From NCBI RefSeq assembly GCF_016026235.1, contig NZ_CP065613.1: a stretch of 64,000 bases of DNA; one strand, 5' to 3'. Each line of letters begins with the position of its first letter. Position 1 is the first letter of the stretch. The notes beneath the pieces are model-generated. The model worked only from the letters and a program-made list of their open reading frames with translations, had not been told where the DNA came from and searched no databases. Source of the stretch: Escherichia coli. GTDB taxonomy: Bacteria > Pseudomonadota > Gammaproteobacteria > Enterobacterales > Enterobacteriaceae. Below are positions 1-14,007 of the stretch, piece after piece. Both the position numbers and the translations under genes were made by a program.

Positions 1-966
1 CATACCTTTGATTCTTTCCCATGAGCGGGAGGTGAATGTTTTTTCCAGCAAATCAGCTTTTGCGCGTTTGGCGTCGTTACTGGTGCCCCCATGGTGCTTG
101 TTGAGCAACTCGATAATTTCATCAAGTGCGATTTCTTTTGCACGCTTTTCTTTTAGCCATGTCGGTGTACCGTCGTTGGCAAATAATTCACTGTTATCCC
201 GTGAGGTATCGATGCCGAGGTGTTCACCTCCCAGGTTAAGAAACTCGATATGAGGAAGAAAGTTTTTAAATGTTGGGTTTGAAAATACCTGTCCATCAAT
301 ACGGGTGGAGCGATCTTTTAGTATTCTGGCGGTGCGCCACACCTGACCGGTTTCTATGTTCATTTGCTTCTCCATCTGGATCAGGATGGAGGGTTCATAA
401 CCGGTTTCTGTTTCTGCTTTCATTTTTATACCGGTTTTTGCCAACTGGCGTTTGCCATCATCACCTTCGAAAAAGTCATACTCATATCCTGCACGCCCGC
501 ACATAATAATGTGCGCCTGACTGTTAACAAATCGATCGGTAAAGCGTCGCCACTCCTGTTTGAGCCACGCCCAGTCTGAAAATTCCAGTCCTCGTTTACG
601 GTTTCGGCGTCTGGCATACTCGTCGCATAATCCGGTCCAGAAGTGACTGATGGAGTCGATGATCATTACGGAACCGCTGCTTTCCGCTTCATTAATGGCT
701 TCAAGCAGATCAACAAACGAGCGGGTTTTTGCCGTAAATAATTCGATATTTTCCGCATCAAAGCGGGGTTTAACCCAGTCAGAGCCTGTTTCTGTGTCCA
801 GAAACATTACCGGGCGGTTACCAGCTTCAATTCCCCGTTGCCGCATAAGCATTACCAGACCAATAGCCAGTTCGCTTGCTGTGTAGGTTTTGCCGTCGCC
901 AGCAAACCCCATAATTCCTGCTTTTAGATAGGCCTGTGTGTTTATTGCTCGTTGAAAAAGCGCCAT
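1..966 (-). CDS. P-loop ATPase, phage recombination/replication-associated (3' end outside window)
   Basis: Minus-strand ORF from ATG at 966 running off the left edge; own translation shows Walker A GFAGDGKT and Walker B-like VMIIDSIS; start abuts the stop of the Gam-like gene. Confidence 0.6.
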   Translation of the reverse strand, partial: MALFQRAINTQAYLKAGIMGFAGDGKTYTASELAIGLVMLMRQRGIEAGNRPVMFLDTETGSDWVKPRFDAENIELFTAKTRSFVDLLEAINEAESSGSVMIIDSISHFWTGLCDEYARRRNRKRGLEFSDWAWLKQEWRRFTDRFVNSQAHIIMCGRAGYEYDFFEGDDGKRQLAKTGIKMKAETETGYEPSILIQMEKQMNIETGQVWRTARILKDRSTRIDGQVFSNPTFKNFLPHIEFLNLGGEHLGIDTSRDNSELFANDGTPTWLKEKRAKEIALDEIIELLNKHHGGTSNDAKRAKADLLEKTFTSRSWERIKGM

Positions 967-971
967 AGATT

Positions 972-1271
972 TTAGTCCTCCAAATCAATATCAACCTGGT
1001 GGTGGGCAATGGTTTCAGCCATGTACCGGATGTGTTCTGCCATGCGCTCCTGAAACTCAACATCATCATCAAATGCGTGGCTGATTGCCTGTTTATTGGC
1101 ACCGTGGCGTTGCAAATGGTCGATGCAGAGCGATTCAAACAGGTGCTGAGGCAGACCTTTTTCCAGGTCGTCCGCCAGTTCCGTTTCTTTTTCTTCACGA
1201 ACGATCTGCTGGTAGTGGCGAGCCCATGCCATTTCTTCAATACGATCAAAAATCGGGTAAGCGCTCATCAC
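972..1271 (-). CDS. gam: Gam-like host-nuclease (RecBCD) inhibitor
   Basis: 99 aa; strongly resembles lambda Gam C-terminal region ([17 protein letters not shown]...[17 protein letters not shown]) from memory; paralog of the 56348..56644 gene. Confidence 0.85.
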
Positions 1272-3204
1272 TGGTCACTCCAAAATTTTCAAGCTTGTTG
1301 GCAATCATCATTGCGATGTCAGGGATTGCAGGCGCATAGGCTATGCACGCAGGATTCGCACATAAACCGTAAACCGCCGCAATCAACACCTGTTTTTTCC
1401 AGTTGAGTTCATCTTCGCCAGTTTCATTATTGCTATCATTATGCTGATCGCTGCCAGCGTTCTCCGGTAACAAATCATCAGCTTTTTCCGTTTTCTTCGG
1501 CTCTTCTTCCTGTGCTTCATCTGGTTTTTTTTCGTCAAAAGTTTCCTGATAAGTTGCGTCTCCCATCACCGCGCCACAGTCAGGGCAGTTATCCTCGCCA
1601 GTCTGATTGCAGGGTGTTCCCTCCTCCGGTTCGCTGTTCTGGTGCTGTTTATCTTCAGTCTGTCGCACTTCATTTTCCGTTTTTTTGACTTCATTTGAGG
1701 AGATATGATGACCGGGAATCCATTTCGGATCATTCGGGTCGCTAATCCCTTCAACAAATTCTCCGCGAGAGGCAGCCAGTAATTTGTCTGCATCGACAGG
1801 ATTTTTGGGCGGAATGTTTTTCCGGGCTTCATGGAGTTCTGCCCGCAGTTCCTGATATTTCGCATCAACAGCATTTACCTGTGACTGAGCATCCAGCGGC
1901 TGCGTGTCCTGATGATGTTCAGTTGCATCCGGTTCCACTGTTTCAGCCGTTGCCTGTTCATCTGCCATTGCGCAAGATGGTTGCGGTTTTTCTTCATCAT
2001 CCTGTTTTCCTTCTTCTGTTACTCGCTGCGGCATCGGGGCAGAGGAGCGACCGCAGGCAATATCCACGATTTCCGGATCAGGGTTGGCATGATCGGTTTC
2101 AGTCAGTACTTTGTTCAGATATTCAGTGACGTGTGCGGGGATGACCTCGATCCCAATTGGTGCTTCTTTCACGGACGCAACCACGATGGCGCGGGAATAA
2201 TCCAGCCCGCCAGGCATGGTGATGAATTTGTCGCGGAAAACAGAAAAGGGTGGTTTATTTTCAGCGATAATTTCCTCAATGCGTTTAGCGTGTGCCGGAT
2301 GAAGGTTATAGATGTCCACGTCCATTGAACGGGCCAGTACGCCAGTGGCTACATCGCGCGTCAGTGACGTCAGATCGTGGACGAAACCTTCGCCGCGATC
2401 GGTGAGGTTCCCGCCGCCAGCATTAGCACCGGAAGTCGTGCGAGTGATGCGTGAAACACGATTCCCTTTTCGCCATTCTTTTGTCAGAAGACCGCGATCA
2501 ATGTGTTCGGTATCCAGCCAGGCTGAAATGAAATTCTTAAATTCATAGGGCTGATGTTTTTTCGTGATAGAGAAAACTGCCTTAATTGCATCAGTCAGGC
2601 GGAGCAGGGCGGCATTATCCAGAGTTGTCGGTTCTGCCATGCCGCGTATGGCCAACAGCAGATTCTGGACATAGCTGTTTTCCTGATCCATCTCAAGAGC
2701 AGTAATGTGTTTGCGTTGTTCACGGGTGGCATGATGCAGGTATTTCCGATCCCCGGCAGCATACGTAAAAATGTGCAGAAGACGCTGTGTGAACCGCAAA
2801 GTGGCTACAGAGACTTCGCAATCCTGGCAATCCTCGTGGGCGTCTGCCTGCGCGTTTTCTTCCTGGCCTCCCGCCAGTTCTTTGGTTTCTTGAGCATTAT
2901 CCTGGTGGTGAACGTCGTCTGGCGCTGCTCCCGGTTTTAGTTCCCATGTCATGGAGTCTTTGCTGAGTTGATAGCGTTCACTCCAGGTAAAATCGATCTC
3001 ACCTTCAGGGGGAAGGTCATTAACGACAGGAAAATTTGTGGCAACAGCTTTAAAATAGTTGCTCAGTTTTTTACCTGACTTAACGAGCAGATAGTCCAGA
3101 GTGGTGCTGGTCGATTCAAAATCGTCGCTTGCCCACAGGACGACGTCAGGTTCACCGGATGATTTTTTCGCTTTCCGTAACAGGAAGAGTGGTTTTGTGC
3201 TCAT
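1246..3204 (-). CDS. Large acidic hypothetical protein of the early-left operon
   Basis: 652 aa ORF; D/E/Q-rich low-complexity segments; Cys pairs CQDCE and CPDCG; family not recognised. Confidence 0.5.
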
Positions 3205-3274
3205 TGTTTTTTAACCTCAACTCAGATTAAAATTACTGCGAGTGATGAATAAATGTCCCAGGTTCTTCACTCAG

Positions 3275-3304
3275 GCCTGCACACTGTGCAGGCTTTCTTT
3301 TTTT
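3275..3304 (+). terminator. Intrinsic-terminator-like hairpin plus T-run on the plus strand
   Basis: 8-bp stem gcctgcac/gtgcaggc with 3-nt loop followed by tttcttttttt. Confidence 0.35.
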
Positions 3305-3332
3305 CAGATTTCACCTTTTAATTTCATTGCAA

Positions 3333-3626
3333 TCAGAGTTGCCAGAAATTCGGCTTTTTTTCTGCGGGCAGATTATTTCCGATGTAAACCAGGCACATTT
3401 TTGTGGCACCTTCAACAAGAGTTTTAAAGTTTCCTGATAGACCGTCGATATCAACCACAGTGAATGGGGTTTCTTTATTTTCTGTTTTAATTACGTAGCC
3501 AATATGCTTTCCTTCCAGGTAAACCTCGTGAACAATGTTATCAGTAGTTGCAACAGTGGCTTCATAATTGGTGTTCATGTTTTTCTCCTTAATTAAGGTT
3601 GAGCGAATCCCTGCCATTGCTGGCAT
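3333..3626 (-). CDS. Hypothetical phage protein
   Basis: 97 aa ORF in co-oriented early-left gene series. Confidence 0.45.
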   Translation of the reverse strand: MPAMAGIRSTLIKEKNMNTNYEATVATTDNIVHEVYLEGKHIGYVIKTENKETPFTVVDIDGLSGNFKTLVEGATKMCLVYIGNNLPAEKKPNFWQL

Positions 3627-3652
3627 AAATTCAGTTTCGAATAGTCAGTTAA

Positions 3653-3934
3653 TTAAAGTTCGTGTGCCATCTGGTCTTTTTCGGCGCAGATTTCACTACA
3701 ATATTTGCGTTTCTTTTTCCTCATCATGGTTCCGTGCATGTAAATAAGTTCAGCAGTGTAAGCCTTATCAGGGCTTACTTGTCTGTCACACAGGCCATAA
3801 GCACAGGGAATTAAATCGGGATCACCTTTCTGCTGGAGGGTTTTTTTGATTATCCATAACAATTTTTTGATTCCGGTGTGTGTTATGGTCTGCTGAGGTG
3901 CAGAGGTAAAACAATAATCAAGCATAGGGTTCAT
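3653..3934 (-). CDS. Hypothetical small Cys-containing protein
   Basis: 93 aa ORF; lysine-rich with CAYGLC...CSEICAEKD. Confidence 0.45.
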   Translation of the reverse strand: MNPMLDYCFTSAPQQTITHTGIKKLLWIIKKTLQQKGDPDLIPCAYGLCDRQVSPDKAYTAELIYMHGTMMRKKKRKYCSEICAEKDQMAHEL

Positions 3935-3950
3935 ATCCGTAGCTCCATTT

Positions 3951-4505
3951 TTATTTTAAAGAAAGTAATTGTTCCACAGTCATATTTTTAATTGCGCCCC
4001 GGTTAACAAGAGTCCATCCCTGTTTTTCCAGATAAAACCGGAAAGTCTCCAGGGTACAGACCAGTGCGCCATCAGGAACGGTTTCGGTGAATTCGACATT
4101 GCCGAATTTGTCGAAGTGAACAACCAGAGTGCGACCATCACCCGGAATCATCTTGTCAGCAGGTGGGGTGTTATTCTGGCGCAGTTCGGCCTCCATGCGG
4201 TCGAACTCAGCAATGTAGGCTTCCTTGAATGCGGCGGCTTTTTTGCCAGTGAAGCCCATCATCAGGAAAACGAAGCCGTTTTTGGTGATTTGGTACATTG
4301 GGCGTTTTTCGCCTTTGGCGTCGGTATAGGTGACGGGCTTAAAATTAAGCCGGTTAAACTCCGGCGAGCATTCGAGAGTTTCGATCTTCTGAATAACGTT
4401 TTTGTGCATTTTCCGGAAGAACTTCGCAACCGCAACAGACGTAGTGACAGCGCGACCATTTTCGATGGTTACGTCAGGGTGAGAAAGGGTAAGGATAGTA
4501 GCCAT
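3951..4505 (-). CDS. Rha-family phage regulatory protein
   Basis: Motif TKNGFVFLMMGFTGKKAAAFKEAYIAEFDRME typical of Rha; start taken at internal Met (4505); long ORF extends to 4799. Confidence 0.6.
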   Translation of the reverse strand: MATILTLSHPDVTIENGRAVTTSVAVAKFFRKMHKNVIQKIETLECSPEFNRLNFKPVTYTDAKGEKRPMYQITKNGFVFLMMGFTGKKAAAFKEAYIAEFDRMEAELRQNNTPPADKMIPGDGRTLVVHFDKFGNVEFTETVPDGALVCTLETFRFYLEKQGWTLVNRGAIKNMTVEQLLSLK

Positions 4506-4670
4506 GATGGCAGCCTCGATAGTCAGTTTAAATAACTCACCACCAGAGGTAGCAATCTCATGGGTGGTGAGACGCACAGGGTTGCTACAACCGGTGACTA
4601 CCGAAACCGGCCAGCCTTGCGGCTGCCCTGCACGCCCCACCATAATCTGAATGTGGCTGTGCTTGACGCA

Positions 4671-4694
4671 TAAAAAAACCGCCTGAGCGCGGTT
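4671..4694 (-). terminator. Intrinsic terminator (minus strand)
   Basis: Stem aaccgc/gcggtt with 6-nt loop followed by a 7-A run on plus strand (U-run on minus transcript). Confidence 0.45.
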
Positions 4695-4821
4695 ATGCGC
4701 AGTAGTCATCGTCGGGGTAGCAATCCCGGCCCCCGTTTTATGAGGTGCAGGTGCACTATAATTCCACCCGTTCTGGTTTTCAATAGCTACATTCAACATT
4801 TTCTCTCACCTTTCATCACCG

Positions 4822-4976
4822 AAGTGAATTTTGTGATGCGGTGCCTGGTGCCTCCAGGTGACGTTAACCAGTTAACAATTACAGTCGGCTTTCCCACCCA
4901 AACCAATAAGGACTAACATGACTTTTAACTGTGCCGCGTGCGCTTAGCCGCATTCACCGCATCACAAAATTCACTT
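4822..4976. repeat. Perfect 22-bp inverted repeat separated by 111 bp
   Basis: aagtgaattttgtgatgcggtg (4822-4843) vs its reverse complement caccgcatcacaaaattcactt (4955-4976). Confidence 0.6.
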
Positions 4977-5206
4977 TAAAAAGGGCGGACATCAGCCAGC
5001 AATTAAACCGATGCCGCCAACTGGTACTTCACACAGCAATGTCGTTATTTACAACCGGAAGCGCACTCCCACCATTTAAATTTCACAGACAAGACCGACT
5101 CTTTATGGATACCGGAAATGCGCCTTCGTGTTGTGCCCGGTTTTATTTCACCACCTCCGGGCTTTGGTGGTATCTTTACTGAAGTTCTCACACAACCAGT
5201 AAGGAA

Positions 5207-5503
5207 ATGAATATGCCAACGTATCTCGCCAGAGTAGAACTATATAATGCTGAGCCAGAGGATTACGAAGGGCTTCATAAATATATGCTCTCACTAGGAT
5301 TCAGGAGAACGATCCCCCATGGAGATGGTTCGTATAATCAACTCCCGGACGGAACTTATGTTTCCGAAAAGGGCGGTGATATTTATCAAATTCGCAGCCA
5401 GATATCTGACTATGCAGACCGACTATCCGGGTATCGCGCGTCTGTTTTTGTTTGCGAATTCAGTCAATGCGCATGGTATTTATACCCCGCCAAGACCCGG
5501 TGA
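5207..5503 (+). CDS. Hypothetical protein
   Basis: 98 aa ORF convergent with and overlapping the 3' end of the 5480..5692 ORF. Confidence 0.4.
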   Translation: MNMPTYLARVELYNAEPEDYEGLHKYMLSLGFRRTIPHGDGSYNQLPDGTYVSEKGGDIYQIRSQISDYADRLSGYRASVFVCEFSQCAWYLYPAKTR

Positions 5504-5692
5504 ATATCCTGCACGGCCTTCTGCTTTGTAGAAGGCTTCTTCGCTATCATAATCGCCAGATTCCAGCGCTTCTTTAGCCAGCCAGATGCGTGCCCCAGTG
5601 CCTGCATTTGGCTCCAGTTGCTGGAGGCGTTTTGCATCTTCTGGGAGTAGAGCGATAACGTGTTTTAATTCTGTCTCGTTCATTTTACTCAC
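5480..5692 (-). CDS. Hypothetical small protein
   Basis: 70 aa ORF; 8-bp overlap with upstream ORF suggests translational coupling. Confidence 0.35.
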   Translation of the reverse strand: MSKMNETELKHVIALLPEDAKRLQQLEPNAGTGARIWLAKEALESGDYDSEEAFYKAEGRAGYSPGLGGV

Positions 5693-5894
5693 CTGAATGT
5701 CTTCCCAACCAACGACGTGCGCCAGCTTCGGTTTTAAACGTTTTGCTTTTGGTATACGTCATGGCGGTGAATGTGCCGTCCTGGTTGGGGAACACGCCGT
5801 ACACCAGAGATTCGTTGTTGCCAAGATCGATAGTATTCATGTTGACCCCATTTCCCCTTAACGCCGGGGTAGCGGAACTGTTTGCTGAGAACAC
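5685..5894 (-). CDS. Hypothetical small protein (start possibly at internal Met, ~51 aa)
   Basis: 69 aa ORF immediately downstream of the DicA-like repressor on the same strand. Confidence 0.35.
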   Translation of the reverse strand: MFSANSSATPALRGNGVNMNTIDLGNNESLVYGVFPNQDGTFTAMTYTKSKTFKTEAGARRWLGRHSGE

Positions 5895-6042
5895 CGTGCG
5901 GTGTCTTGATGAATGAAATTTAGAATAACCTAAGATGGGCGGCCAAGATTTTTATGTAGAAAAACCTAAGTTTTTTGATGTAAAAAACACAAGTGTTTGA
6001 AAGTTTGTGCTTTTTATTACAGGGTGTGGAGAAAAAAGGGGA

Positions 6043-6450
6043 TTATTTGTTTGCGCTTCTTTTGCGAGCTTTGAGTAGTTCTTCAAAAAGTTTGTTGAAA
6101 TTTTCAACTCGAGCACGCATCTCTGACAACAGGGCCTTTTGCTCTGACTCAGGCAGTGCGTCGAACAGTTGAAGTAACTCTTTTTGATCTTCTGTCAGAA
6201 TGGCTGGCTGATTATCCGGGATCGGTTCGCCTGGTTGTTTATCTTCATCCCCAAAAAGAAGCCAAGTCGGTGAGCACTGAAGCGCTTGGCTCAGTGCGAA
6301 TAATCTTTTCCCCGCCGGCTGTGTTTCATCTCTTTCCCATTGAGAAATTGTTACGTGAGCCACTTTGACCAGCTTACCTAATGCGGCCTGAGACAGTTTT
6401 AATTTTTTACGCCTATGTAAGAGGCGAGCACCGAAGGTTTCGTTTTTCAT
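6043..6450 (-). CDS. DicA-like HTH (XRE-family) prophage repressor
   Basis: 135 aa; HTH LSQAALGKLVKVAHVTISQWERDETQP; resembles Qin DicA from memory; divergent from a Cro-like gene. Confidence 0.8.
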   Translation of the reverse strand: MKNETFGARLLHRRKKLKLSQAALGKLVKVAHVTISQWERDETQPAGKRLFALSQALQCSPTWLLFGDEDKQPGEPIPDNQPAILTEDQKELLQLFDALPESEQKALLSEMRARVENFNKLFEELLKARKRSANK

Positions 6451-6526
6451 ATTAGGGAATTCTAATTTTTCTTGACTTAGGTTTCTCTACGATCTAGTTT
6501 CCTTAGGAAAATCTAAGGAGCTCGAT
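6451..6526. promoter_or_regulatory. Divergent promoter/operator region between repressor and Cro-like gene
   Basis: 76-bp intergenic with imperfect inverted repeats (ttagggaattctaat; ccttaggaaaatctaagg) and an SD before 6527. Confidence 0.4.
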
Positions 6527-6754
6527 ATGTTGAAAATTGATGCTATAGCGTTTTTTGGCAGCAAAACAAAGCTTGCCAATGCCGCAGGAGTTAGGCTGGC
6601 AAGCATTGCTGCATGGGGGGAACTGGTTCCTGAAGGTCGCGCGATGCGCCTGCAAGAGGCATCTGGCGGGGAACTTCAGTACGACCCCAAAGTTTATGAC
6701 GAATATCGTAAGGCAAAACGACCTGGGAAGGTGATTCATGAAAATCAGGCATGA
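6527..6754 (+). CDS. DicC/YdaS-like Cro-type regulator
   Basis: 75 aa; resembles DicC/YdaS from memory (FGSKTKLA...GRAMRLQEASGGELQYDPKVYDEYRK). Confidence 0.7.
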   Translation: MLKIDAIAFFGSKTKLANAAGVRLASIAAWGELVPEGRAMRLQEASGGELQYDPKVYDEYRKAKRPGKVIHENQA

Positions 6755-7160
6755 GCACATCGAATCAGTGCTGTTAGCCCTGGCAGCCGAAAAAGGGCAG
6801 GCGTGGGTCGCTAACGCAATTACTGAAGAATATCTGCGGCAGGGGGGCGGCGAATTGTCTCTGGTACCAGGCAAGGACTGGAACAATCAGCAGAATATCT
6901 ATCACCGTTGGTTGAAAGGTGAAACGAAAGCGCAAAGGGAAAAAATTCAGAAACTGATCCCTGTGGTTCTGGCAATTCTTCCGCGTGAGCTGCGTCACCG
7001 ACTCTGTATCTTCGATACCCTGGAACGCCGTGCATTACTGGCGGCGCAGGAAGCGTTGAGTACGGCAATTGATGCGCATGATGATGCTGTCCAGGCCGTT
7101 TACCGGAAAGCACATTTCAGCGGTGGTGGGTCGCCCGGCGATTCTGTCGTAGTGCATTGA
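6738..7160 (+). CDS. YdaT-like protein
   Basis: 140 aa ORF overlapping the Cro-like gene end; position and size as in Rac ydaS-ydaT. Confidence 0.55.
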   Translation: MKIRHEHIESVLLALAAEKGQAWVANAITEEYLRQGGGELSLVPGKDWNNQQNIYHRWLKGETKAQREKIQKLIPVVLAILPRELRHRLCIFDTLERRALLAAQEALSTAIDAHDDAVQAVYRKAHFSGGGSPGDSVVVH

Positions 7161-7204
7161 TTGAAATTAATCGTGCCGGATTGTTTTGTTCGGTATCAGT
7201 TAAA

Positions 7205-7624
7205 TGTAACGCTGCGAGCGTTACAAGGTGAAAACAAATGGCTTCAAACTGGATAAAGCTCGAGGTTATTACGCCGGATAAGCCGGAAATATTCAGGCTT
7301 GCTGAGATTCTGAATATTGATCCAGATGCCGCATTAGGGAAGGTTATTCGCTTCTGGGCATGGGCGGATCAACAAATGATAGACGGTAATGCAGATTGTA
7401 ACGCTCGCGGCGTTACAAAAAGTGCAATAGATCGCATCACTTTTATGTCTGGTTTTGCTGATGCGTTAATTCAGGTTGGATGGCTGGTCGAAAATGACGG
7501 TGGGCTTTCTCTACCTAACTTTGAACGTCATAACGGAAAAAGCTCTAAAAAACGGGCGGTTACAAACGAGCGAGTAACAAAAATACGCGAACTGAAACGA
7601 AAAGGTAACGCTGCCAGCGTTACA
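7205..7624. repeat. Four copies of a ~21-bp palindromic iteron (TGTAACGCTnnnAGCGTTACA)
   Basis: Copies at 7205-7225, 7397-7417, 7558-7579 (variant), 7604-7624, in and just upstream of the replication gene. Confidence 0.55.
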
Positions 7625-8026
7625 CAAACGGATCAAAAAGCGTTACCAGAGGAAGAGGAAGAGGAAGATCTAAATACTGATCTCCCCCTAAATCCCCCTC
7701 GCCAAAAACGAGCGTCTAAAAAATTCGAGCCGGAGGCTATTGAGCTGCCCGATTGGTTGCCGGAAACACTCTGGCATGAGTGGGTCCGGTTCAGACAGGC
7801 ATTGCGAAAACCGATTCGAACGGAGCAGGGCGCTAACGGGGCGATACGGGAACTGGAAAAATTCCGTCAGCAGGGTTTTACACCTGAGCAGGTGATTCGA
7901 CACAGCATCGCCAATGAATACCAGGGCCTGTTCGCGCCGAAAGGTGTTCGGCCTGAGACGTTGCTCCGACAGGTTAACACCGTCTCGTTGCCGGACAGTG
8001 CGATCCCGCCAGGCTTCAGGGGGTAA
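7238..8026 (+). CDS. Replication initiator (O-like/YdaU-like)
   Basis: 262 aa; acidic linker EEEEEED; iterons embedded; followed by DnaC-like loader. Confidence 0.6.
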   Translation: MASNWIKLEVITPDKPEIFRLAEILNIDPDAALGKVIRFWAWADQQMIDGNADCNARGVTKSAIDRITFMSGFADALIQVGWLVENDGGLSLPNFERHNGKSSKKRAVTNERVTKIRELKRKGNAASVTQTDQKALPEEEEEEDLNTDLPLNPPRQKRASKKFEPEAIELPDWLPETLWHEWVRFRQALRKPIRTEQGANGAIRELEKFRQQGFTPEQVIRHSIANEYQGLFAPKGVRPETLLRQVNTVSLPDSAIPPGFRG

Positions 8027-10464: not shown

Positions 10465-10691
10465 TTTTATGGGGCACCTTTCTGATTGATTTCATATTGG
10501 CGAGGTAAGTAGAATGACTGCGGGTGCTTGAGGCTATCTGCTTCAGGCATGAACACCAAAAGGCAGATAGAGAAAAGCCCCAGTTAACATTACGCGTCCG
10601 GCAAGACGCTTAACATTAATCTGAGGCCAATTTCATGCTTTGCACATGTAGGTTAGCCTCTTACATGCCGAAAGGCAAGGAGAAGCAGGCT

Positions 10692-10847
10692 ATGAAGCAG
10701 CAAAAGGCGATGTTAATCGCCCTGATCGTCATCTGTTTAACCGTCATAGTGACGGCACTGGTAACGAGGAAAGACCTCTGTGAGGTACGAATCCGAACCG
10801 GCCAGACGGAGGTCGCTGTCTTCGTAGACTACGAATCCAGGAAGTAA
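10692..10847 (+). CDS. hok: Hok/Gef-family type I toxin
   Basis: 51 aa MKQQKAMLIALIVICLTVIVTALVTRKDLCEVRIRTGQTEVAVF, near-canonical Hok; in-frame upstream extension from 10635 may be mok-like. Confidence 0.8.
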   Translation: MKQQKAMLIALIVICLTVIVTALVTRKDLCEVRIRTGQTEVAVFVDYESRK

Positions 10848-13976: not shown

Positions 13977-14007
13977 GGCCATCAGAGTTTTGCTGATGGC
14001 CTTTTTT
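13977..14007 (+). terminator. Intrinsic terminator upstream of holin
   Basis: ggccatcag...ctgatggcc hairpin followed by TTTTTT. Confidence 0.5.

Follow-up and report, generated by a model that had tools for sequence, protein, structure and literature searches.

An intrinsic terminator that points against every gene around it raises the question of which transcript it ends. In the 64-kb stretch of Escherichia coli DNA analysed here (referred to as the window), a hairpin followed by a run of T residues is oriented for termination on the plus strand and is located between a recE-like and a racC-like gene of a Rac-type prophage, both of which are read from the minus strand. The original prediction, made from the nucleotide sequence, had placed a strong plus-oriented hairpin with a T-run at 3275-3304 within a minus-strand operon and had offered two readings, namely termination of a short antisense or small RNA and insulation of the operon from convergent transcription. 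In the following, the signal itself, its counterpart in K-12, its variation among E. coli strains and its possible function are considered in turn.

Results

Genomic context of the hairpin

The hairpin resides in the 128-bp racC-recE intercistronic region (3205-3332) of a minus-strand operon mRNA, which represents a fully complementary target in cis for a plus-strand RNA made at this site. Downstream in the operon follows the recE-like gene (1246-3204, minus strand). It encodes a protein of 652 amino acids that matches the Pfam family Exonuc_VIII (E = 1e-66), and its translation initiation region (3202-3218, minus strand) consists of the Shine-Dalgarno sequence GAGG (3218-3215) and the start codon ATG (3204-3202). 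The racC-like gene (3333-3578), which is frameshifted in comparison with K-12 racC, the ydaE-like gene (3653-3934) and the gene for a Rha/Ash regulator (3951-4799) are all situated upstream in the operon and are likewise encoded on the minus strand, as had been stated for all neighbours of the hairpin. Annotated relatives exhibit the Rac gene order intR-xisR-ralR-recT-recE-racC-ydaE-kilR, on a single strand throughout. Plus-strand open reading frames in the vicinity have no family support in Pfam, and no plus-strand gene that the terminator could serve was found upstream near the hairpin.

Several peculiarities of the two flanking genes were noted along the way. The homopolymer at 3355-3361 in the racC-like gene comprises seven instead of eight T residues and the resulting frameshift leads to a product of 81 amino acids (ending in ...AEKKPNFWQL) as opposed to the 91 amino acids of K-12 RacC. 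Among related loci the length of this run varies between 7, 8 and 9, and the gene is annotated as 'frameshifted' in strain FDAARGOS_943; either a hotspot of slippage or an artefact of sequencing could account for this. The recE-like gene (652 codons for amino acids as compared with 866 in K-12 recE) is nearly identical to its K-12 counterpart over approximately the first 100 codons only and falls to background similarity beyond a break near 2903, which indicates a probable mosaic junction inside recE. In FDAARGOS_943 (NZ_CP065615.1) copies of IS600 interrupt both recE and racC and IS1 is found nearby; the hairpin-containing spacer is intact between the insertions.

A plus-oriented intrinsic terminator signal

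Positions 3273-3304 of the plus strand read AGGCCTGCAC-ACT-GTGCAGGCTT followed by TCTTTTTTT. The two arms (3273-3282 and 3286-3295) form a stem of ten pairs reaching from A3273-T3295 to C3282-G3286, six of which are G-C and one of which is G.T, and enclose a loop of three nucleotides (3283-3285). The T-tract (3296-3304, 8 T in 9) adjoins directly, and it is here that the RNA would be expected to end. In relatives, this tract is immediately followed by the complement of the racC stop codon (TCA, 3304-3306), with the last T of the tract overlapping it. When folded as RNA, the plus-strand hairpin alone reaches -16.0 kcal/mol (z = -4.2) and takes rank 1 among the terminator-like sites in window positions 1-8000. 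A stricter test, which required a folding energy of -14 kcal/mol or lower and a stem end no more than 3 nt away from a 9-nt stretch containing 7 or more T, identified five terminator-grade sites on both strands of the whole 64 kb, as compared with a mean of 0.35 in 20 dinucleotide-preserving shuffles. The locus possesses the hallmarks of intrinsic terminators on the plus strand, a GC-rich stem with a short loop and a U-rich tract directly 3' of it, and hairpin and T-tract together are a genuine plus-oriented intrinsic terminator signal that stands far above chance. The hairpin and T-run originally proposed are therefore real, and the coordinates given for them proved essentially correct, the stem starting at 3273.

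The minus-strand RNA of the same hairpin pairs over 8 bp only (-14.2 kcal/mol) and then runs into GAGUGAAG. Since this is not a U-tract, the terminator is unidirectional and plus-oriented. In line with this, the plus-strand sequence upstream of the stem is TTCTTCACTC, such that the minus-strand RNA continues with GAGUGAAGAA, and an A-tract 5' of the stem, by which bidirectional terminators are recognized, is absent. Bidirectional terminators of convergent genes, as far as they are characterized in the citation of Ju et al. (2019) in PMC7815308, resemble the present hairpin in that it forms on both strands at a gene end; they differ from it in the upstream A-tract, in the U-tail on the second strand and in the arrangement of the flanking genes, which are co-directional here.

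Among the five terminator-grade sites of the window, one is a 14-bp perfect AT-rich palindrome at about 40950-40990 on the plus strand (TGTACTGTTTTTTT ... AAAAAAACAGTACA), which is followed by T residues and could act on both strands. The remaining ones are located near 14002 (plus strand), 58974 (plus strand) and 58630 (minus strand).

An RNA 3' end at the homologous site in K-12

In the K-12 genome (NC_000913.3) the start of recE and the end of racC are annotated at positions 1417386 and 1417488, respectively (RefSeq). The spacer between them carries a different version of the terminator region, designated allele B as opposed to allele A of the window (see below). Term-seq (Adams et al., 2021; PMC7815308, Supplementary file 1) lists a plus-strand 3' end at 1417486 that is classified as 'antisense racC', with mean reads of 185,664 in the LB OD 0.4 sheet and 146,140 in a second sheet, and with three entries in the three-condition table. 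For comparison, SokC and SgrS amount to 66,698 and 6,222 reads in the LB OD 0.4 sheet, while the nearest other plus-strand antisense end listed, 1411575 (+), has 1,179 (PMC7815308). The flank printed in the same source puts the 3' end at ...CGCAGGCUAUUUCU, i.e. into the T-tract just beyond the homologous hairpin; within this homologous T-tract (...GGCUAUUUCU) it precedes the complement of the racC stop codon by 2 nt. TRS on RNAtag-seq data (PMC10687069) yields a terminus at 1417483-1417495 on the plus strand, labelled 'Antisense racC', with 1417487 as the dominant position, a signal of 0.99 and an adjusted p reported as 0 in three libraries. Among all positions tested there, 1417487 (+) occupies rank 151 and SokC rank 225 (PMC10687069).

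If no plus-strand transcript ended at this site, the case for a functional terminator would fall, and for the K-12 homolog Term-seq and TRS contradict just that. Since a strong 3' end within the T-tract emerges on the plus strand from two independent published K-12 datasets, the short antisense RNA is favoured among the two readings proposed at the outset and the insulator has become less likely. The in vivo 3' end pertains to allele B of K-12 only. For allele B, in vivo termination of a plus-strand RNA at this site is highly probable in our view; by extension from the sequence, we assign a somewhat lower probability to the same event in allele A of the window.

Neither PMC7815308 nor PMC10687069 comments on the site at 1417486/7. 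Supplementary file 2 of PMC7815308 does not contain a Rho-termination region at 14174xx, although absence from this list is weak evidence. In the RefSeq annotation of K-12, ralA and kilS are present nearby and no RNA is annotated in the racC-recE spacer. Rfam yielded no match at E <= 1 in 3205-3332 of the window and nothing beyond sub-threshold noise with K-12 allele B (Rfam 15; best score 18.9 bits vs a gathering score of 55). Literature searches by gene name, literal hairpin sequence and genome coordinates retrieved no paper naming such an RNA, and the racC-recE spacer is not covered in the genomic-SELEX paper.

A side observation concerns the RalA region of K-12 (NC_000913.3, 1413556-1413734, plus strand). 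Among the Term-seq rows listed in the two sheets, the next plus-strand 3' end beyond 1411575 or 1411374 is that at 1417486; the annotated RalA end is thus missing from these rows and the end of the unnamed spacer RNA is among the strongest.

Two alleles with a common predicted architecture

Alignment and sliding identity revealed that alleles A (window) and B (K-12) differ by a variable cassette of 55 bp (about 3234-3287). Identity is around 50% within the cassette, which corresponds to background, as compared with 97-100% over 2918-3232 and from about 3288 on. The cassette starts directly after the invariant TTAAAATT and reaches into the terminator, where it ends within the 3' arm. It is thus the stretch from a putative -10 element to the terminator 3' arm and coincides with the predicted transcribed body.

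Just upstream of the terminator, a 5' stem-loop, SL1, is predicted on the plus strand of allele A (3240-3272). It is formed by pairing of GAGUGA (3240-3245) with UCACUC (3267-3272) and by an inner helix of 3247-3250 with 3262-3265, and it directly abuts the terminator hairpin. The allele A RNA comprising 3238-3303 folds with -26.6 kcal/mol (z -5.0) and that of allele B with -24.7 kcal/mol (z -4.8), and none of 200 shuffles was as good in either case. Despite unrelated sequence, the two alleles have a 5' stem-loop, a terminator hairpin and a U-tail in common, with the 5' stem consisting of GAGUGA/UCACUC in allele A and of CAGUG/CACUG in allele B. Judged by its 8/9 T, as compared with 5/8 T, and by a comparable stem, the terminator of allele A should be no worse than the experimentally validated one of allele B.

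Alleles A and B do not share a conserved open reading frame in the racC-recE spacer. Coding of a small protein by the plus-strand RNA was considered and dismissed, as the plus-strand reading frame at 3242-3427 continues across the terminator, is not preserved in allele B and yields no match in Pfam.

Conservation and covariation of the stem

A homologous spacer is present in 1780 of 5426 complete E. coli genomes, i.e. in about a third, K-12 included; that of FDAARGOS_943 shares 100% identity with the window over a 251-bp query. Variation was followed in a set of 12 BLAST-derived homologs and then in 211 loci anchored on the recE leader, which represent 25 distinct spacers. Each of the 25 retains the hairpin, with folding energies of -13.6 to -21.2 kcal/mol, and a tail rich in T whose length varies owing to indels, and substitutions among the variants cluster in the hairpin loop. 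Eight stem pairs are common to all variants, and in plus-strand RNA all of their 152 cells correspond to standard pairs. In two of these shared pairs both sides have changed in a compensatory manner (A-U to G-C in one case, G.U/A-U/G-C in the other). Wobble pairs occupy 12 cells, each of which is G.U on the plus strand and hence a C.A mismatch in minus-strand RNA, while A.C cells do not occur at all. A single variant (L041) carries one apical G-to-A change that lies outside the eight shared pairs and is opposite to the wobble pattern. The covariation of the stem and the wobble pattern lend modest support to selection acting on the plus-strand RNA, in a sample that is restricted to one species and two alleles, low in diversity and confounded by relatedness. 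As to more distant homologs, a scan of genome contigs returned only three loci, a locus search based on RacC near-identical copies only, and tblastn against phages six records, all of which are at least 94% identical.

The tip of the palindrome occurs both ways round among the lineages (L023, L033, L056 and others), as ACT or AGT in allele A and as CCATA or TATGG in allele B, with the stem remaining intact. These flips (window 3283-3285) suggest that the inverted repeat has repeatedly undergone inversion or template switching.

A putative promoter overlapping the start of recE

The region 3205-3274 had been named as the place to look for a promoter. When the search was extended to the recE start, a putative sigma-70-type promoter could be read from the sequence on the plus strand (3204-3233), consisting of TTGTTT (3204-3209), an 18-nt spacer and TAAAAT (3228-3233). 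This is a weak match, with 8/12 positions agreeing with the sigma-70 consensus, and a promoter scan flagged no plus-strand promoter in window positions 1-8000, including 3204-3233. The promoter-like block is invariant in the 12 BLAST-derived homologs, also in those with a different recE allele. As evidence for a promoter this conservation is ambiguous, because the block also harbours the Shine-Dalgarno sequence and the start codon of recE. A leader hairpin that sequesters the Shine-Dalgarno sequence was considered as another cause of the conservation and rejected as too weak (-6.3 kcal/mol, z -0.75). Transcription from the putative promoter is predicted to start at about 3238-3241 and would give rise to an RNA of approximately 60-66 nt. 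We infer that the RNA would start at this promoter overlapping the recE start.

Discussion

An OOP-like antisense RNA as the probable explanation

In our judgement, the locus as a whole is probably best explained by a plus-strand gene for a small RNA of about 60-66 nt (roughly 3238-3303) that resembles the OOP RNA of phage lambda and may act in cis on recE. Taken by itself, the existence of a dedicated RNA gene of about 65 nt appears fairly probable. A cis effect of the RNA on recE expression as its specific function is a tentative proposal that we draw from analogy.

According to this proposal, the putative promoter over the recE start would drive synthesis of a plus-strand RNA in which a 5' stem-loop is directly joined to the terminator hairpin and the U-tail. 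The RNA would be fully complementary to the intercistronic recE leader on the minus-strand mRNA of the early-left (recombination) operon. As with lambda OOP, it may act in cis and dampen recE (and downstream recT) relative to racC or set a threshold for their expression. One conceivable route is duplex formation with leaky or early operon transcripts that would lead to cleavage by RNase III; another, which may operate instead or in addition, is head-on transcriptional interference exerted from the promoter overlapping the recE start. With its predicted start some 20 nt upstream of the recE Shine-Dalgarno sequence, the RNA would not occlude the ribosome-binding site directly. Complementarity above chance was not encountered elsewhere in the window, and the cis site in the recE leader is the only evident partner. 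The K-12 RNA is plentiful in lysogens, in which the operon is repressed and the proposed target is normally scarce, and this abundance fits a 'safety threshold' role and a trans-acting role equally well.

Comparison with known systems

Lambda OOP, reportedly described by Krinke and Wulff in 1987 and 1990, is a 77-nt antisense RNA that is transcribed from the promoter pO opposite the pR operon. Its down-regulation of the mRNA that it overlaps depends on RNase III. Like OOP, the spacer RNA would be a short RNA of a lambdoid phage encoded opposite an early operon. It would stop where the upstream gene ends, at an intrinsic terminator that works in one direction only, would be made in the lysogen and would match the operon mRNA with full complementarity across a gene junction. 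Nevertheless, there are differences. OOP has its own promoter pO, whereas the promoter of the spacer RNA is putative. OOP overlaps the 3' end of a coding region, whereas the K-12 spacer RNA stops 2 nt short of the racC reading frame. Furthermore, the spacer RNA is encoded in the left-arm recombination module (racC-recE) and OOP at cII-O, the likeness between them being one of layout rather than of compared sequence.

Within Rac itself, the RNA component of the RalA/RalR type I toxin-antitoxin system (NC_000913.3) is comparable in that RalA is also a plus-strand small RNA within the same minus-strand operon and is present in lysogens. However, RalA has a length of 179 nt, is located opposite rcbA/ralR about 3.7 kb away and has a toxin partner, whereas the spacer lacks a conserved toxin-like small open reading frame. 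An adjacent or overlapping small toxin gene, as is characteristic for type I antitoxins, was not found at the spacer, and the match to the sok family of Rfam lies elsewhere, at 10522-10697. KilS, an sRNA derived from the 5'-UTR of kilR in the Rac early-left region of K-12 (PMC8175672), is likewise a recently recognized small RNA from this region. It is sense to the operon and stems from the kilR leader, whereas the spacer RNA is antisense and intercistronic. KilS demonstrates that the Rac early-left region was still yielding unannotated RNAs in 2021. When compared with canonical Rho-independent terminators, the hairpin does not differ in form, as it combines a GC-rich stem, a short loop and an adjoining U-tract with 3' ends in the U-tract (in K-12). 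Only its orientation relative to the surrounding operon is unusual.

Alternative explanations

Four other explanations deserve attention, which by decreasing weight are a trans-acting sRNA, an insulator, a hairpin acting in the minus-strand mRNA and a chance or DNA-level palindrome. The first of these, which we consider rather improbable, invokes the same RNA of about 65 nt but has it pair with mRNAs of the host or of other phages via Hfq or ProQ, such that its position antisense to recE would be incidental. DicF, IsrK, KilS and RalA are examples of prophage RNAs that pair with mRNAs in trans, and several trans-acting sRNAs are encoded by Rac and neighbouring regions. The abundance of the spacer RNA in uninduced K-12 lysogens, in which its cis target is repressed, agrees with such a role, and so does its compact arrangement of stem-loop, terminator and U-tail that is typical of chaperone-bound sRNAs, with the U-tail being long in allele A. 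In K-12, however, the tail ...UAUUUCU is poor for Hfq, and the single-stranded loop sequence differs between alleles A and B, which argues against a common target in trans. Candidate targets in trans within the 64-kb window were rejected, since none rose above chance in the scan.

Insulation as the sole purpose appears improbable to a still greater degree. It would do without a dedicated gene, and the terminator would stop pervasive antisense transcription coming from recE/recT or from the attachment-site side before it meets racC-kilR and the immunity region head-on. In this scenario the abundant 3' end would belong to a decay product that the hairpin protects and keeps stable. AT-rich horizontally acquired DNA often contains spurious intragenic promoters, which speaks for insulation, as does the failure of the promoter scan to flag any plus-strand promoter in 1-8000. 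On the other hand, the reads at 1417486 exceed those of the antisense 3' ends of about 1,000 reads listed nearby, such as 1411575 (+) with its 1,179, by more than 100-fold. Untranslated antisense RNAs of E. coli are mostly Rho-terminated (PMC7815308), yet the same source lists no Rho region at the site. In addition, both versions of the cassette retain a second stem-loop just 5' of the terminator, which an insulator would not need.

Very unlikely, in our view, is a function that is confined to the minus-strand mRNA, in which the hairpin just after the racC stop codon would separate the expression of racC from that of recE, as a 3'-stabilizing element or a site of processing, or would affect recE translation as a structure of the leader. 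The plus-strand T-tract and RNA end would be by-products in this case. The hairpin does form on the minus strand as well, it begins about 10 nt past the racC stop used in relatives, and differential expression is plausible in view of the opposing roles of racC and recE toward retron defence. Its minus-strand version, though, is two pairs shorter and is not followed by a U-tract, and every one of the 12 wobble cells turns into a C.A mismatch there. The T-rich tail is retained in both alleles despite indels, and the RNA end has been mapped to the plus strand; no minus-strand 3' end is listed at 14174xx, with the operon being repressed under the conditions assayed. Roles in the minus-strand mRNA and in a plus-strand RNA are not mutually exclusive.

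A chance palindrome beside a T-run or a site acting on the DNA level (a protein-binding palindrome or a recombination hotspot) devoid of RNA function would agree with the flips of the palindrome tip (ACT/AGT, CCATA/TATGG) as a sign of hairpin or inverted-repeat activity in DNA. The expectation of 0.35 sites per window and the conservation of structure with compensatory changes argue against it, and the strong RNA 3' end measured in vivo at the K-12 homolog by Term-seq and TRS effectively refutes it. Altogether, the abundance of the 3' end, the second stem-loop, the wobble pairs that are tolerated on the plus strand only and the retained T-rich tail weaken the insulator, minus-strand and chance readings.

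Significance

The kind of element described here, an intrinsic terminator of a cis-antisense RNA in a lambdoid prophage, is ordinary and this instance is apparently uncharacterized. K-12 has the most intensively annotated of all bacterial genomes, and yet one of the stronger RNA 3' ends in two published datasets has neither a name nor a gene annotation, an Rfam family or a discussion. What makes the locus notable is the combination of an abundant unnamed RNA in K-12 and many other E. coli strains, the allelism of two cassettes and the position between recE and racC. RecE and RecT, the latter encoded downstream, form the exonuclease/annealase pair known from RecET recombineering and the sbcA phenotype. 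According to a preprint (bioRxiv 10.1101/2020.06.22.160242), RecE triggers retron toxin/antitoxin systems by degradation of msDNA, and RacC, encoded immediately upstream, blocks the retron toxin, the two being linked as a 'blocker-trigger pair'. We may speculate that an antisense RNA at the racC-recE junction sets the RecE:RacC ratio or keeps recET silent in lysogens. The full scenario, in which about one third of E. coli strains would employ an antisense RNA between racC and recE with two interchangeable 55-bp 'specificity' cassettes for gating RecE/RecT against RacC and thereby link prophage recombination to the evasion of anti-phage defence, is unlikely to hold. Even if the RNA were nothing but an antisense by-product, the terminator should no longer be regarded as an 'orphan', as it had been termed initially.

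Further RNA elements in the prophage region

Rfam searches of the window also led to matches on the minus strand upstream of racC, namely to the C4 antisense RNA (4560-4647, 75.7 bits) and to isrK (4672-4748, 57.6 bits), both of which lie within the 5' part of the open reading frame at 3951-4799 (282 amino acids; Pfam Phage_ASH at residues 14-108 and Phage_pRha at residues 119-203). STnc100-like (4830-4971) and DicF-like (4983-5033) matches on the same strand remained below threshold. The sok antitoxin RNA match at 10522-10697 is located on the plus strand and has a score of 117 bits (E = 1e-26), implying a type I toxin-antitoxin locus of the hok/sok type in the prophage region.
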